A stretch of DNA of 62,323 nt, counting the filler, from Thermodesulfobacteriota bacterium (GTDB taxonomy: Bacteria; DASVDK01): NCBI GenBank assembly GCA_036381125.1. It is 8 parts of 8 records of this genome, joined end to end, with 100 filler letters (N's around TTAATTAATTAA, not from the genome) between each part and the next. Parts side by side here need not be neighbours in the genome. Positions count along the whole stretch, not along the records: positions 41,394 to 46,686 come from DASVDK010000179.1; 7 more parts are not named here. One strand, written 5' to 3'. The first letter of the stretch is position 1, and the number at the start of each line of letters is the position of its first letter. The position numbers and the translations under genes are program-made. Under the pieces are notes generated by a model. The model made no database searches, had not been told where the DNA came from, and worked only from the letters and a program-made list of their open reading frames with translations. Shown here piece after piece: positions 12,190 through 58,770 of the stretch.

Positions 12190-12289
12190 NNNNNNNNNNN
12201 NNNNNNNNNNNNNNNNNNNNNNNNNNNNNNNNNTTAATTAATTAANNNNNNNNNNNNNNNNNNNNNNNNNNNNNNNNNNNNNNNNNNNN
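12190..12289. other. Artificial contig linker
   Basis: N-run + TTAATTAATTAA + N-run, 100 nt. Confidence 0.99.
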
Positions 12290-19890: not shown

Positions 19891-19990
19891 NNNNNNNNNN
19901 NNNNNNNNNNNNNNNNNNNNNNNNNNNNNNNNNNTTAATTAATTAANNNNNNNNNNNNNNNNNNNNNNNNNNNNNNNNNNNNNNNNNNNN
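19891..19990. other. Artificial contig linker
   Basis: N-run with TTAATTAATTAA. Confidence 0.99.
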
Positions 19991-26093: not shown

Positions 26094-26193
26094 NNNNNNN
26101 NNNNNNNNNNNNNNNNNNNNNNNNNNNNNNNNNNNNNTTAATTAATTAANNNNNNNNNNNNNNNNNNNNNNNNNNNNNNNNNNNNNNNNNNNN
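26094..26193. other. Artificial contig linker
   Basis: N-run with TTAATTAATTAA. Confidence 0.99.
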
Positions 26194-41293: not shown

Positions 41294-41393
41294 NNNNNNN
41301 NNNNNNNNNNNNNNNNNNNNNNNNNNNNNNNNNNNNNTTAATTAATTAANNNNNNNNNNNNNNNNNNNNNNNNNNNNNNNNNNNNNNNNNNNN
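41294..41393. other. Artificial contig linker
   Basis: N-run with TTAATTAATTAA. Confidence 0.99.
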
Positions 41394-41834
41394 GCCGATC
41401 GAGGCGCGAGCGCGGAAGGCCGCCTCGGCGGGCGGAAGCCCGGCGGGCAGCCGCACGAAGGCCGGGACCGCGAGCCCCGCGCGGGCGAGCCGCTCGCGGC
41501 TCTCCGCCTTGTTGCGCGCGGCGTCGACGGCCGAGACGGGGTTGGCCGGGATCCCCAGGCGCTCGGCCACGGCGGCCGCCAGCGCCGCCGTGTCGTCGTC
41601 GACCCCCACCACGGCATGCACGGGGTGGCGGGAGGCGAACTCGGCGGCGGCGGCGACGGCCCGCTCGCGGTCGTGGAACGGGAGCGTCAGGAACCCCGTG
41701 GGGTTGGCCGCCGCCATCACGTTGGGCTCCTCGGAGCCGACCGTGAGGTCGGCTCCGAGGCCAACGGCGGCCTTCATGAAGTCCTCCGCCCGGTAGGTGC
41801 CGGTCGGCAGGAGGAGGAGGAGCCGCGGCCTCAG
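41394..41834 (-). CDS. ATP-grasp ligase (L-amino-acid-ligase-like), 3' truncated
   Basis: LLLLPT.TYRA.DF..AA, VVGVDD, LGIP.NP..AV.AARNK…R..L..AG..VP.F; probable CTG start. Confidence 0.8.
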
Positions 41835-42535
41835 GAGAGGCGCCCCCTGTGGAAGCGCTCGAGCTCGTCGTTCGCCTTGACGATGGTCTCGAGCCGGTCG
41901 ACGACGGCCCCGAGCGAGGCGCCGGGGAGGCTCGCGTAGAGCTCGCCGTCGGCGAGCCTCGTGTAGACGCGGTTGCCGATGCAGCCGAGGCTCACCGCCG
42001 CCCGGCCGGACGCCTCGGAGGCGGGGATGGCGGCGCAGGTCGGCCGCCCCATGACCGTGCCGTCGGGCCCCACGCCGGCCAGCGTGGCGGCCTCGGTGAG
42101 GAGCATGATCTGCCTGGCCGTCCCGCGCACCATCACGACCGCCGGCTCCACCGGCGTCGCCTCGAGCGGCGCGTAGACGGCCACCTTGAGCGGCGTCCTG
42201 CGCCGCGGGATCTGCGCCACCTCCTCCAGGCGGATGTACTGGAGGTCGACCATCGTGCCGATGAGCCCCTCGAGCTCCTTTGCCGTGGCGGGCGGCAGCT
42301 CCACGGCATGCGTGTGGGCGCCGATGGGGCACGACATGTGGTCGGCCGCCTCGGTGTAGAAGGCGCCGGACTCGGCGGCCTTCGGCCAGTAGCCGCACCC
42401 GGCCGGTGCGGCGGCGGCGCGCGGGATCCCGGCGGGCGGCGCGTCCGGAAACGCGACCGCAACCGGCGGCGCCGCGAGGCCGAGAAGGGTCGTCAGGCGC
42501 CGGCCGGAAGCCCTGGCGGCATCGAGCGTCGTCAT
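41831..42535 (-). CDS. DUF169 family Cys-rich protein
   Basis: PVAV.F, GC.YW, CPIG, RPTC and SLGCIGNR.Y..L…EL. Confidence 0.8.
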   Translation of the reverse strand: MTTLDAARASGRRLTTLLGLAAPPVAVAFPDAPPAGIPRAAAAPAGCGYWPKAAESGAFYTEAADHMSCPIGAHTHAVELPPATAKELEGLIGTMVDLQYIRLEEVAQIPRRRTPLKVAVYAPLEATPVEPAVVMVRGTARQIMLLTEAATLAGVGPDGTVMGRPTCAAIPASEASGRAAVSLGCIGNRVYTRLADGELYASLPGASLGAVVDRLETIVKANDELERFHRGRLS

Positions 42536-42551
42536 CGTCGACCGTCCTCCC

Positions 42552-43148
42552 TCACTTCTTCGCTGGCGAATAGTACGGGTTGGTCCCCAGCGCGTGCTCC
42601 GTGGTGTCGAGAATGGCCACCACCTCCGGCACCTGCTGCCGGATGGTGGCCTCGATGCCCTGCTTGAGCGTCACGTTGGCCATCCCGCAGCCCTGGCAGC
42701 CGCCGCCGAGCCGCACGTAGACGATCGCGTCCTCCACGTCGATCAGCTCGACGAAGCCGCCGTGCGAGGCGACGGCCGGGTTGATGTCCCGGTCGATGAT
42801 GGTCTGGACCTTCTCGCGGATCCCCCGGTCCACCTCGCTCACCACCTTCGCCCCCTCCGCGATCGGCGGCACGCCGGACCGGAGCGCCTCGCGGATGGCG
42901 GCGCCGATCCGCTTGCCGATGACCGGCCAGGGATCGGGGTTGTCCTTCGTCACGGTCACCGTTCGACCCGAAACCGTGAGCGAGGTAACGCCGTCGATGT
43001 CGAGGATCTTTTCGGCCAGCGGAGAGCCGAGCGCTTTGTCGGGCGTGGCGAAGCGGATGGTCCCCTCCGGGTAGATCGGCCGGTCGACGACGAACCGGCA
43101 GGTCCGGTCGTCCACCGGTTCACCCGTGATCCTGATCTCGTCGCTCAT
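42552..43148 (-). CDS. NfuA/NifU-like Fe-S carrier (Nfu N-terminal scaffold + NifU-C)
   Basis: SPLA..I..I.GV; INPAVASHGG…GGCQGC..A..TLKQGIE…NPYY; AAGGAGG RBS. Confidence 0.9.
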   Translation of the reverse strand: MSDEIRITGEPVDDRTCRFVVDRPIYPEGTIRFATPDKALGSPLAEKILDIDGVTSLTVSGRTVTVTKDNPDPWPVIGKRIGAAIREALRSGVPPIAEGAKVVSEVDRGIREKVQTIIDRDINPAVASHGGFVELIDVEDAIVYVRLGGGCQGCGMANVTLKQGIEATIRQQVPEVVAILDTTEHALGTNPYYSPAKK

Positions 43149-43167
43149 ACGGCCTCCTTGGTCGGTG

Positions 43168-44640
43168 TCATGTTCGTTCGAGAGAGCCCAACTGGCCCTC
43201 GGTCGGCTCCGCTCAGCAGAACCACGCTTCGGCGAGCCTCGGGGGACGCCTTCCCGCCGGCGCTCCAGCCGCCGGCACCTTCCGACGGGGCGCGGCGTCC
43301 TCGCCTGCCGGCGCTCCACTCGCCGGCACCATCCGTTGCGGCGCGGGCACGCCTCCGGCTCGGCAGGAGGCGAGGTCCCGGAGCCGCTCGAAGGTCGACG
43401 CGTGCGGCTCCCCCGTGCGCGCGGCCTCCTCGACCAGCGCCGCCGCCTCGCGCTGGAGCGCGTCCATGCGGGGGTCTGGGTGCCGCCACCGGTACGTGAA
43501 CGCCGCCTCGTCGAGGTCGCCCAGGTGCGGCCGCATCGCGTCGGACCCGAGCAGGAGCGACCCGGGCGGCACGAGGAGCCTCAGCGTGTAGTGCACCGGG
43601 TCGATGTGCTCGACGAGCCCCTCGCCGTCGACCACCTCGAAGAGCTCACGATAGCTCTCGAGCGTTTCCCAAGGCGTGAACGGCACGAGCGTCGGTCGCA
43701 GGACGAGGCCGGCGGCTCGCGCGAGCGCCAGGACCTCGAGCACGTCGGCCCGCGTGTGCCCCTTGGCGAGACTGGCGAGCACCGTGTCGTTCAGCGACTC
43801 GACGGCGGTCACGACGAAGGCGCAGCCGGTCTCGACCAGCTCGGGAAGGAGGCGCCGGTGCCGGAGCAGGTGCTCCACCTTGATCGTGGCGTCGAACGTG
43901 ACGTCCGGGAACTCGGCGTGGAGCGCCCGCGCCAGGCGCATGCCGTGCGTCGGCCCGTTGAAGAAGTCGGGGTCGCCGAACGTGATGTGGCGAGCCCCCG
44001 CGGCCACCTGCCGCCGGATGTCCTCGAGGACCACGTCGCGCGGCACGGCGAAGAACCGGCCGCCGTAGACCGGTGGAATCGGGCAGTGGCGACACGCGTG
44101 CCGACACCCCCGGCTGGCCTCGGTATAGCCGGCCACGTCGAGCCGCCCGTCGCCCCGATCGAGCGGCGCGTAGCGGGCGAGCGGCGGCAAGGCGGCCCGC
44201 GACGGCACGCCGAAGGACAGCCGCTCGAGGACCGGCTCGCGCGAGGGGGCCGGCGTCTCGCCCCGCTCGAGCGCCTGCGCCAGCTCGACCAGGCGCTGCT
44301 CGACCTCCCCGCCCAGCACCGAGTCGGCGCCGTGGCCGAGCAGGTGCTCGGCGTTCAGCGTGGCGTAGAGGCCGTAGAGGCAGACGTGCGCCCCGGGGTT
44401 GGCGGCCCGGACGGCCGCGAGCGCGCGCACGCCGAGCCGCAGCGCCGTGTGCATCGGGACCGAGATGGCCACGAGGCGGGCCCGCGACACCGCGGCGAGG
44501 TCGAGCCGCTCGGCGGCCAGGTCGAGTGCGGCCGGGCGGAAGCCCGCCCGCTCGAGGAAGCCGAGCGCCGAGGCCACCGCGAAGGGCTGGTGGCCGAGCT
44601 CGTAACAGGAAATGAGAAGCACCTCACCTTCGCCGCGCAT
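43168..44640 (-). CDS. B12-binding-domain radical SAM protein with CUAEP tail; predicted selenoprotein (UGA=Sec at 43213-43215)
   Basis: YELGHQP N-terminus; SRGCRHACRHC; ITFGDPDF. Reading through TGA gives …WFC-U-AEPTEGQLGSLERT*. Confidence 0.88.
43182..43200 (-). promoter_or_regulatory. Candidate bacterial SECIS hairpin
   Basis: GAGGGCC-AGUUG-GGCUCUC: 7-bp stem with a GU-containing loop, starting after a 12-nt spacer 3' of the UGA. Confidence 0.65.
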
Positions 44641-44658
44641 GACGCTTCATGGTACCTC

Positions 44659-44687
44659 TTGACGCCAGCCCCCCGACCCTCTAGGCT
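44659..44687 (+). promoter_or_regulatory. sigma70-type promoter for the Cys-rich leader and sulfite reductase
   Basis: TTGACG-17 nt-TAGGCT, 8 nt before ATG 44696. A divergent TACCAT at 44649-44654 could serve the rSAM gene. Confidence 0.65.
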
Positions 44688-44695
44688 CCTCGGGT

Positions 44696-44821
44696 ATGTT
44701 CGACCTGCGCGCCGCCGCCTGCGCCTGTTGTTGTCGCCCCTCCGGGGCTGCGTGCATGCGCACGCCCCTGGCGGCCTCGGGCTCGCGCGCGCCGGTCACC
44801 CGGAGCGCCGCGCCGCGATAG
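44696..44821 (+). CDS. Putative cysteine-rich leader peptide (41 aa)
   Basis: MFDLRAAACACCCRPSGAACMRTPLAASGSRAPVTRSAAPR*; TGC GCC TGT TGT TGT; not in the ORF track. Confidence 0.6.
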   Translation: MFDLRAAACACCCRPSGAACMRTPLAASGSRAPVTRSAAPR

Positions 44822-44896
44822 CGGCGACACGCGGGACCTCAAGGGCCGCACCCCAACCGGCCCTGACGGCCCGCGGCGCGCCTCGACACTCCCGCT

Positions 44897-44963
44897 TCTC
44901 TCCTCCTCCACGCGCCCCGCCGGCCCGAGCGGCCCGCGGGGCGCGGCCGTTTTCGAGGAGAGA
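44897..44963 (+). promoter_or_regulatory. RBS-sequestering / terminator-like hairpin
   Basis: TCTCTCCTC (44897-44905) is complementary to the SD region GAGGAGAGA (44955-44963). Inner stem CGCGCCCCGC/GCGGGGCGCG is followed by GCCGTTTT. Confidence 0.65.
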
Positions 44964-44970
44964 CTCGGAC

Positions 44971-45947
44971 ATGGCGTCAGCGGCACACGTCGAGGCGGTC
45001 AAGAAGTCGAAGAACCCCCTCGACGTCCTCGAGGACATCCGGCGCTACGCGCGCGAGGGCCTCGCGGCCATCGATCCGGACGACCGGGACATCCGCTTCA
45101 GGTGGTTCGGCCTCTACACCCAGCGCCCCCTCGAGGACGGCTATTTCATGCTGCGCGTGAAGCTGCCGGGCGGTCAGGCGACGGCCGACCAGTTCGAGGC
45201 GCTGGCCGACATCTCGGAGCGGTACGGTTGCGGCGTCCTCGACGTCACCGACCGGCAGAACGTCCAGTTCCACTGGCTGCGGATCGAGGACATCCCGGCG
45301 GTCTTCGACGCGACGCCAGCCCTCGAGGCGGCGAGCCGCCACGTCACCGGGAACCGCGAGTTCTCGGACCTCCCGCGGAAGTACAGGGTCTCCATCGCCG
45401 CCTGCGGCCACCGGTGCACGCACCCGGAGATCAACGACGTGGCGCTCGTCGGCGTGTCGCACGGCGACATGCGCGGCTTCGACCTCTGGGTGGGCGGCGG
45501 CCTCAGCACGGCGCCTCGGTTCGCGACGCCGCTCGGCGTCTTCGTCCCCGAGGCGGAGGCGGTCGAGACGAGCCTCGGCCGCCCCCTCGCCGACGGGCCT
45601 CCGGCGCCCGACCCCGACGACCCGCTCGCCGACCGGCTCGAGGCGGACGGGCTCTCCGTCGGACGCCGCTCGTACCGTGCACAGACGATGGCCTGCACCG
45701 GCATCGAGTTCTGCAAGCTCGCCGACATCGGGCTGCTCGGCTCGCGGGTGAAGGTGGGCGGGGAGGCGCGGCAGGCCTACCAGGTTTACCTCGGCGGCCG
45801 CGGCGGCGCGCGGCGGCGCTCGAGGCGCTCGGGGCGGCCGAGAGCGACCCGGCGCACGAGGTGCTGACGCCGGGCGGCGCCGACGCCCCTGCCGACGACC
45901 CCATTGCGCTCGCGGCCGCCGCGGCCGGAGCAGGAGACCTGCCATGA
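44971..45947 (+). pseudogene. Ferredoxin-dependent sulfite/nitrite reductase (SirA/NirA/CysI-like) with multiple internal deletions and a terminal frameshift
   Basis: RW.GLYTQR, FMLRVK.PGG, TDRQNVQFH, LPRK and ACTGIEFCKLA are present. The ACGD..RN and GCPNSC segments are absent. Confidence 0.8.
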
Positions 45948-46686
45948 CGAAGATCTTCGTGATCCACGAGCACGACGTCTGGGTCGAGCCGCTCCGCGAG
46001 GCGTTCCGCGCGGAGGGGCTCCCCTTCGAGGAGTGGTTCCTCGACGAGGGCACGCTCGACCTGTCGGCCACGCCGCCCGACGGCGTCTTCTACAACCGGA
46101 TGAGCGCGTCCTCCCATACGCGCGACCACCGGTACGCGGCCGAGTACACCGGCCTCGTCCTCGCCTGGCTCGAGTCGCACGGTCGGCGCGTCGTCAACAA
46201 CGGCCGCGCCCTCCAGCTCGAGATCAGCAAGGTGGCGCAGTACGAGGCGCTCCGCGCGTTCGGCATCCGGACGCCGCGAACCGTGGCCGCGGTCGGACGC
46301 CGTCACGTGATCGAGGCAGCGCGCGCGTTCGAGCCGCCGTTCATCACGAAGCACAACCGGGCCGGCAAGGGGCTCGGCGTGCGCCTGTTCCGCTCCCACG
46401 ACGCCCTGCGCGCGTACGTCGAGGGCCCGGACTTCGAGGTGCCGGTCGACGGCGTCACCCTCGTGCAGCAGTACGTCCAGGCGCCCGAGCCCTTCATCAC
46501 CCGCGTGGAGTTCGTCGGAGGCCGGCTCCTCTACGCGGTCCGGGTCGACACCTCGCTCGGCTTCGAGCTCTGCCCGGCCGACGACTGCCGGACCGGCGAC
46601 GCCTTCTGCCCGACCACGCCGTCGCCGGCGCCCCGATTCCGCATCCTGCCGAGCTTCGACCACCCGATCGTCGAGCGCTACCGGCG
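45944..46686 (+). CDS. RimK-like ATP-grasp (alpha-L-glutamate-ligase-like), 3' truncated
   Basis: NRMSASSHTR, ALQLE.SK..Q, P.T, KHNR.GKGLGV.LF, QQYV and FELCPAD.C. Confidence 0.82.
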
Positions 46687-46786
46687 NNNNNNNNNNNNNN
46701 NNNNNNNNNNNNNNNNNNNNNNNNNNNNNNTTAATTAATTAANNNNNNNNNNNNNNNNNNNNNNNNNNNNNNNNNNNNNNNNNNNN
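46687..46786. other. Artificial contig linker
   Basis: N-run with TTAATTAATTAA. Confidence 0.99.
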
Positions 46787-53561: not shown

Positions 53562-53661
53562 NNNNNNNNNNNNNNNNNNNNNNNNNNNNNNNNNNNNNNN
53601 NNNNNTTAATTAATTAANNNNNNNNNNNNNNNNNNNNNNNNNNNNNNNNNNNNNNNNNNNN
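53562..53661. other. Artificial contig linker
   Basis: N-run with TTAATTAATTAA. Confidence 0.99.
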
Positions 53662-58670: not shown

Positions 58671-58770
58671 NNNNNNNNNNNNNNNNNNNNNNNNNNNNNN
58701 NNNNNNNNNNNNNNTTAATTAATTAANNNNNNNNNNNNNNNNNNNNNNNNNNNNNNNNNNNNNNNNNNNN
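58671..58770. other. Artificial contig linker
   Basis: N-run with TTAATTAATTAA. Confidence 0.99.

Follow-up and report, generated by a model that had tools for sequence, protein, structure and literature searches.

An in-frame TGA very likely read as selenocysteine in the C-terminal tail of a radical SAM protein from a Thermodesulfobacteriota bacterium

Radical S-adenosylmethionine (SAM) proteins with a C-terminal Cys-selenocysteine (Sec, U) or Cys-Cys pair followed by Ala-Glu-Pro are already curated as a selenoprotein family in NCBIfam (NF040546, "CUAEP/CCAEP-tail radical SAM (seleno)protein"). In the portions of the literature available to our searches, "CUAEP" and "NF040546" occur only in a single passage of one preprint, which mentions the family as an uncharacterised CU-motif selenoprotein (bioRxiv 10.1101/2022.07.06.499078). 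A 2026 review of the prokaryotic selenoproteome (PMC13188914) covers two other radical SAM selenoproteins, TIGR04167 and TrsS, and neither term occurs in its main text. The nearest named relative by model score is ArsL (NF040542). A preprint describes cleavage of SAM by ArsL into methylthioadenosine (MTA) plus an aminocarboxypropyl radical; SAM cleavage does not depend on the RCCLKC tail of ArsL, which binds As(III), whereas formation of the product does (bioRxiv 10.1101/2024.02.01.577332). An organometallic Fe-C intermediate is reported in a further study (10.64898/2026.04.29.721666). Here, we describe a further member of NF040546, encoded in a 62,323-nucleotide (nt) stretch of DNA ("the window") from Thermodesulfobacteriota bacterium DASVDK01 (GenBank assembly GCA_036381125.1), in which an in-frame TGA is in all probability decoded as Sec. 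An earlier note made from the sequence alone had proposed this decoding and had named a CUAEP/CCAEP family related to ArsL; that family is real.

The gene lies on the minus strand, with its ATG at 44640 and its first in-frame TGA at 43215-43213, and the unextended open reading frame (ORF) ends ...AEAWFC. Past this TGA, the frame continues as GCG GAG CCG ACC GAG GGC CAG TTG GGC TCT CTC GAA CGA ACA (AEPTEGQLGSLERT), giving a read-through C terminus of ...AEAWFC-U-AEPTEGQLGSLERT. A second TGA closes the frame 19 nt ahead of the ATG (43148) of an nfu gene, just upstream of an AGGAGG ribosome-binding site. The sequence agrees with the earlier note on both points, namely the ...AEAWFC end followed in frame by GCG GAG CCG ACC GAG GGC CAG, and the second TGA (43170-43168) just before the nfu ribosome-binding site. 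The features concerned are as follows.

43168..44640, minus strand: gene for a putative CUAEP-tail radical SAM selenoprotein; 490 codons (44640..43171) plus the terminal TGA, translated with TGA as U.
43213..43215, minus strand: in-frame TGA, probably read as Sec (U476), right after Cys475; the same column holds TGA in 55 of 79 tails and TGC or TGT in the other 24, and C/U is invariant in alignment A2.
43168..43170, minus strand: second in-frame TGA, taken as the true stop from tail lengths, the end of the family model, and the same-genus copy.
43192..43242, minus strand: conserved tail motif P467-x3-E471-x-W473-F-C475-U476-A-E-P-T-x2-Q483, from a 37-sequence alignment; predicted local distance difference test (pLDDT) score 81-82 in the structural model.

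The read-through protein scored 679.8 bits against NF040546 (cut-off 500), with profile positions 1-467 of 468 aligned to residues 7-485 and the match extending past U476. A six-frame search of the genome with the same model gave 671.2 bits and flagged "1 TGA" within the match. The second-best model was ArsL (295 bits; cut-off 450; profile positions 1-414 of 423 aligned). Every testable defining feature of NF040546 is found in the window's protein: a full-length match, a B12-like domain, a radical SAM core, a variable linker, a W-[FY]-C-[UC]-A-E-P tail, and alternation of Sec and Cys at the same codon, with no defining difference. Hence, the gene belongs to this known family; its closest relative among the matches listed is 62% identical. 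Since the TGA at 43215-43213 is in all probability decoded as Sec, the gene very likely encodes a 490-residue member of the family and not a 475-residue protein, as far as can be judged from sequence.

To place the TGA among relatives, we drew on a pattern scan of one genome per species, which returned at least 603 matched stretches, at least 585 of them encoding a relative; the best 80 were used. In two loci (L073 and L089), the tail is missing where the contig ends, leaving tails in 78 of 80 loci, or 79 with the window. Two others (L041 and L048), in which the start of the match and the frame of the tail disagree, were kept in the tail tallies and excluded from the protein alignment and the tree. 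Locus L052 (genome G046) was counted in the tail, hairpin, neighbor, and selA tallies and excluded from alignment A2 and the tree; without it, TGA is found in 54 of 78 tails and 24 of 25 TGA-form genomes have selA above the cut-off, and no conclusion changes.

Of the 79 tails, 55 have TGA directly after the conserved Cys codon, 19 have TGC, and 5 have TGT. In the 37-sequence protein alignment, P467, E471, W473, C475, U/C476, A477, E478, and P479 are invariant, as are C179, C183, and C186 of the radical SAM core, and T480 and Q483 are conserved in 90% or more of the sequences. Aligning the C termini of homologs was a check that the earlier note had proposed, naming a lack of conservation after the UGA as one outcome that would speak against Sec; UGA and Cys codons correspond across the 79 tails, and the in-frame A-E-P is invariant in the protein alignment. 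When the six codons that follow the TGA are compared among the 55 TGA forms, the entropy at codon positions 1, 2, and 3 is 0.38, 0.57, and 1.28 bits, respectively. Variation thus falls mainly at third positions, the signature of translation in the A-E-P frame. The tail after U is 11-25 residues long (median 12) in the TGA forms, 34 of which (34/55) terminate with TAA or TAG, and the NF040546 model finishes 9 residues beyond U. On a quick maximum-likelihood tree of 76 rows, built with the Sec/Cys trait column omitted, at least 14 switches between Sec and Cys are needed, 10 of them forced by well-supported branches.

A sequencing or assembly error for TGC or TGT, or a pseudogene, might be suspected in a metagenome bin as fragmented as this one (382 contigs). 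The only same-genus genome compared has TGA at the same codon in a copy of the gene that is cut by a contig end; its tail reads AEPTESQLGSLERT, its second TGA is at the identical position, and its neighbor is the same nfu gene. TGA is also found in 54 other species, and the window's frame is otherwise intact with a strong, full-length match to the family hidden Markov model. An error or a pseudogene is therefore exceedingly improbable.

We next consider the RNA downstream of the TGA. In bacterial Sec insertion sequence (SECIS) elements, such as that of Escherichia coli fdhF, a hairpin follows about 11 nt after the UGA, and a G and a U in its apical loop are bound by SelB. The window has a candidate of this kind, as the earlier note had reported: a 7-bp hairpin with a GU-containing loop after a 12-nt spacer.

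43201..43212, minus strand: 12-nt spacer between the UGA and the hairpin, encoding A-E-P-T; from sequence and codon-position entropies.
43182..43200, minus strand: SECIS-type hairpin; 7-bp stem, 43200-43194 with 43188-43182, and a 5-nt loop, AGUUG, at 43193-43189.

The stem is GAGGGCC/GGCTCTC with one G.U pair, and the sole stem change in the same-genus copy converts this G.U pair to A-U. We tested the stem in an ungapped alignment (A1) of the 55 TGA forms, pairing columns 16-22 with 28-34. Paired cells made up 86.5% of the stem, as against 68.3% in shuffles (0 of 500 shuffles reached 86.5%) and 39%-52% when the register was slid by 1-3 columns. Cells in which both partners had changed numbered 76, as against 28 expected, and were found in six of the seven pairs, the closing C-G being invariant. 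Within the loop, G24 is invariant and U26 is conserved in 90% or more of the TGA forms. The loop is 5 nt long in most of these and 4 nt, with the register shifted by one, in a few. The TGA forms also differ from the 24 Cys forms in this region: the mean folding energy of nt 10-40 is -10.8 versus -6.4 kcal/mol (Mann-Whitney p = 1.4e-8) and the mean number of fixed-register pairs is 6.05 versus 3.54 of 7 (p = 8.8e-10), p values that, like the shuffle counts, overstate independence because the compared sequences are kin, which tempers the case for Sec. A loop of the form AGUUN or AGGUN is present in 53 of the 55 TGA forms and in 10 of the 24 Cys forms. On these sequence comparisons, the contrast between the two forms is the behavior expected of a SECIS element. 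The candidate resembles bacterial SECIS elements in its 12-nt distance from the UGA, its conserved loop G and U, and its covarying stem, and differs from them in lacking a match to an Rfam family and in its loop of mostly 5, sometimes 4, nt. Among the Cys forms, two from Thermogemmatispora (L044 and L038) carry longer, Cys-rich C-terminal extensions (e.g., ...GSCCG...CCS...); one of the two retains a SECIS-like hairpin, perhaps left over from a Sec-containing ancestor.

The genome encodes three components of the dedicated Sec machinery, with selA (577 bits), selB (339 bits), and selD (351 bits) each above the respective cut-off. The selD gene, itself a putative selenoprotein gene, has an in-frame TGA of its own (...CAG-U-ASKL; G000:C156, about nt 517), followed by a G+C-rich hairpin. 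Of 50 genomes tested among the 78 of relatives, 25 of 26 with the TGA form score above the selA cut-off (the 26th has selA in frameshifted pieces), as do 16 of 24 with the Cys form. Looking for the sel genes in the bin was another check suggested earlier, and it came out in part: selA, selB, and selD are there, and selC was not found in the assembly, while the same-genus genome does have a tRNA-Sec (71.7 bits; called SeC with anticodon tca by ARAGORN). The Sec reading of the earlier note is thus supported by in-frame conservation past the UGA, by selA, selB, and selD, and by the same-genus tRNA-Sec. An alternative genetic code, with TGA read as Trp or Gly, was considered separately and rejected because TGA serves as an ordinary stop elsewhere, ending nfu and 12 of the 24 Cys-form tails, and because dedicated Sec genes are present.

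Several results weigh against decoding as Sec or would favor a true stop, with the protein ending ...AEAWFC and the similarity beyond it due to an element acting in the RNA, for example a terminator or a signal that couples translation to nfu. First, gene callers end the ORF at the TGA. Second, the window's hairpin taken alone folds no better than shuffles: for 45 nt of this 74% G+C DNA, z = -0.13, 84 of 200 shuffles equal or surpass it in folding, and the lowest-energy structure is an alternative pairing; an Rfam scan of 43100-43300 at E <= 10 returned only noise and no SECIS family. Because the single sequence is no better than chance, the significance of the hairpin rests on the comparison with relatives. 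Third, a tRNA-Sec was not found in the 382-contig assembly. The best match to RF01852 (46.4 bits) is a tRNA-Ser, in a genome search that scored 150 of 612 first-look candidates and may therefore have missed one. ARAGORN called no tRNA-Sec on the whole genome and two odd "???" tRNAs that look like false positives of the G+C-rich (74%) DNA; of two pattern and structure scans for tRNA-Sec, one gave a match in an unrelated stretch and the other none; and an Rfam scan of the contigs carrying selA, selB, and selD found no tRNA-Sec near them. An assembly gap is the likely explanation, on indirect evidence from synteny: contig C236 matches the DNA beside the same-genus tRNA-Sec at 90% identity up to its own end, which falls about 740 nt short of the expected tRNA-Sec position. 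Set against a true stop, the variation after the TGA tracks codon positions with A-E-P invariant, 24 relatives have a Cys codon at this position and the frame continues, the neighboring gene varies among loci while the tail does not, and the curated NF040546 model covers the tail. We therefore consider a true stop most improbable, and decoding of the TGA as Sec very likely on this comparative evidence.

The rest of the protein fits the family layout. Pfam Radical_SAM (PF04055) matched residues 176-330 with 58.3 bits, and the B12-binding domain (PF02310) scored 27.8 bits, under its 32.1 cut-off. An AlphaFold2 model built from a 37-sequence alignment had a mean pLDDT of 91.6 and a predicted template modeling (pTM) score of 0.90, with residues 431-460 at 48-65 and the tail block 461-480 at 81-82. 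The predicted fold best matches AprD4 (PDB 6fd2; Foldseek E = 4.6e-19, template modeling [TM] score 0.66-0.71, 20% identity), followed by TsrM, OxsB, and MgmA. A search of PDB sequences with the family profile gave weak matches only, to AprD4 and MgmA at about 34 bits, and no structure of an ArsL-type or CUAEP-family protein was among the matches listed from the Foldseek and sequence searches of PDB. AprD4 has the two-domain fold of the window's protein and lacks the Cys-Sec tail. Family scans and the model together show a B12-binding-like domain at the N terminus, followed by a radical SAM core, a disordered linker, and a conserved tail carrying the Cys475-Sec476 pair.

44083..44106, minus strand: radical SAM cluster motif C179-x3-C183-x2-C186; invariant columns, within Pfam Radical_SAM.
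43243..43359, minus strand: variable Pro/Ala/Gly-rich linker, residues 428-466; 25 of 39 residues are Pro, Ala, or Gly, with low pLDDT.

A flexible Pro/Ala/Gly linker had been predicted earlier, and both its composition and its pLDDT of 48-65 fit that description. Relatives do not share its sequence, and the same-genus copy already departs from it (L110, nt 290-410); fast change in the linker thus goes with a fixed tail. The linker (43243-43359, minus strand) also contains an imperfect direct repeat, VPASGAPAG/VPAAGAPAG.

We then surveyed the genes around the radical SAM gene in 81 loci (the window plus the best 80 of at least 585 relatives), with up to 4 kb on each side. On the contig of the radical SAM gene, the minus strand bears this gene and the three below, and the plus strand bears two more, a NirA-like and a RimK-like gene.

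42552..43148, minus strand: gene for an Nfu-type Fe-S (iron-sulfur) carrier (Nfu_N and NifU; Pfam PF08712 and PF01106), with its own AGGAGG site.
41831..42535, minus strand: DUF169 gene (Pfam PF02596, 78.2 bits).
41394..41840, minus strand: 5' part of an ATP-grasp ligase gene, truncated by the contig end, start approximate (Pfam ATPgrasp_N, 38.3 bits).

The product of the Nfu-type gene falls under the NfuA equivalog cut-offs. Across the survey, the conserved neighbors are YggX, ATP-grasp, formyltransferase-like, DUF169, and Nfu genes. A gene for YggX, an "oxidative damage protection protein", is nearby in 37 of 81 loci by tblastn (36 after removal of one that overlaps a radical SAM call), and its commonest position is immediately upstream on the same strand. 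An Nfu gene is nearby in 5 of 81. The two are found together in none and one or the other in 41 of 81. The window's member adjoins Nfu rather than the more usual YggX. An ATP-grasp gene of the L-amino-acid-ligase type is present in 33 of 81 loci, mostly directly downstream of the radical SAM gene; the window's own partial copy fell under the coverage filter of the survey. Formyltransferase-like genes are present in 12 of 81 loci and DUF169 in 9, of which 7 carry no overlap flag. We infer that YggX or Nfu is a helper for the Fe-S cluster of the radical SAM enzyme, and the ATP-grasp ligase is a possible downstream enzyme.

How might such a protein work? The hairpin at 43200-43182 would act as a bacterial SECIS element and recruit SelB-GTP-Sec-tRNA(Sec) when the UGA is in the A site, and translation would then go on for 14 more codons and end at the second TGA, which no comparable hairpin follows. 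In ArsL, arsenite sits on the RCCLKC tail as SAM yields a 3-amino-3-carboxypropyl species, and the two become bonded. By analogy, the Cys-Sec tail could reach into the active site, keeping a soft metalloid, a chalcogen, or a radical intermediate in place for SAM-derived chemistry. The oxygen-sensitive Fe-S cluster would be maintained by Nfu in this genome and by YggX in relatives, and the ATP-grasp ligase may act on the product of the radical SAM enzyme.

ArsL and the window's protein have in common the two-domain core with its CxxxCxxC motif and a short C-terminal tail, rich in Cys, in which two chalcogen residues stand side by side. Other comparisons tell against the analogy: the window's protein scores below the ArsL cut-off (295 versus 450 bits), its tail is CUAEP on a linker of roughly 40 residues with RCCLKC absent, and neither arsM nor arsQ is among the annotated genes on the contig, in which no dedicated search for arsM was made. 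A different role for a Sec-containing tail, raised in the earlier note alongside metalloid binding, is that of a redox arm, in which the Cys-Sec pair would cycle through a selenenylsulfide with a reductant and pass electrons or a hydrogen atom to the active site; such an arm would resemble the C-terminal Gly-Cys-Sec-Gly of mammalian thioredoxin reductase. The adjacent Cys and Sec on a flexible tail fit this role, as does the free interchange of Sec and Cys (at least 14 switches), which is usual for redox sites, and metalloid-related genes are not among the conserved neighbors in the 81 loci. Three considerations point the other way: in ArsL, the closest relative that has been characterised, the Cys tail serves to bind substrate and not for redox chemistry; no thioredoxin-like partner is conserved beside the gene in the 81 loci; and CU motifs are read as hints of heavy-metal contact in the one preprint that mentions the family (bioRxiv 10.1101/2022.07.06.499078). 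A pure redox arm is conceivable and, in our view, rather unlikely. We tentatively favor over it a tail that holds a substrate or intermediate, a reading that rests on analogy and that we would put somewhat short of an even chance.

A broader hypothesis can be drawn from the same analogy. CUAEP-tail enzymes might be non-canonical radical SAM enzymes of the ArsL kind, the tail holding Se, As, Sb, Te, or a persulfide or perselenide that is joined to the aminocarboxypropyl group of SAM; the resulting unusual amino acid would then be built into a peptide by the neighboring ATP-grasp ligase. This would amount to a widespread and so far unrecognised organo-chalcogen or organo-metalloid pathway in soil Chloroflexota and Acidobacteriota. 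We regard this hypothesis as a long shot.

For annotation, the consequence is a protein of 490 and not 475 residues, the 15 missing residues including the family-defining invariant Cys-Sec-Ala-Glu-Pro motif. Expression of the truncated ORF, or expression in a host unable to read the SECIS element, would give an enzyme without its probable working arm. The family is widespread, with at least 585 relatives among at least 603 pattern matches at one genome per species. To what is already curated, our comparison makes modest additions: a covarying candidate SECIS element, Sec in 55 of 79 tails with at least 14 switches, a putative Fe-S helper (YggX or Nfu) in 41 of 81 loci, and an ATP-grasp gene in 33 of 81.

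The window consists of eight contigs of the metagenome bin (4.33 Mb, 382 contigs, 96% complete), chained via paired 44-N runs. The contig junctions are at 12190-12289, 19891-19990, 26094-26193, 41294-41393, 46687-46786, 53562-53661, and 58671-58770, and features that span them are not true neighbors. Because the contigs are joined by N runs, the genuine context of the radical SAM gene is only its own 5,293-bp contig, window 41394-46686. Divergent from the radical SAM gene on this contig is a NirA/sulfite-reductase-like gene (44989-45864, plus strand), which adjoins it in 1 of 81 loci. Its matches are limited to the ferredoxin-like half domain and part of the 4Fe-4S domain, and the frame turns Arg/Gly-rich near its end, which suggests that the gene is frameshifted or broken. 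Beyond it lies a RimK/LysX-like ATP-grasp gene (45944-46684, plus strand), truncated by the contig end and likewise a neighbor in 1 of 81 loci.

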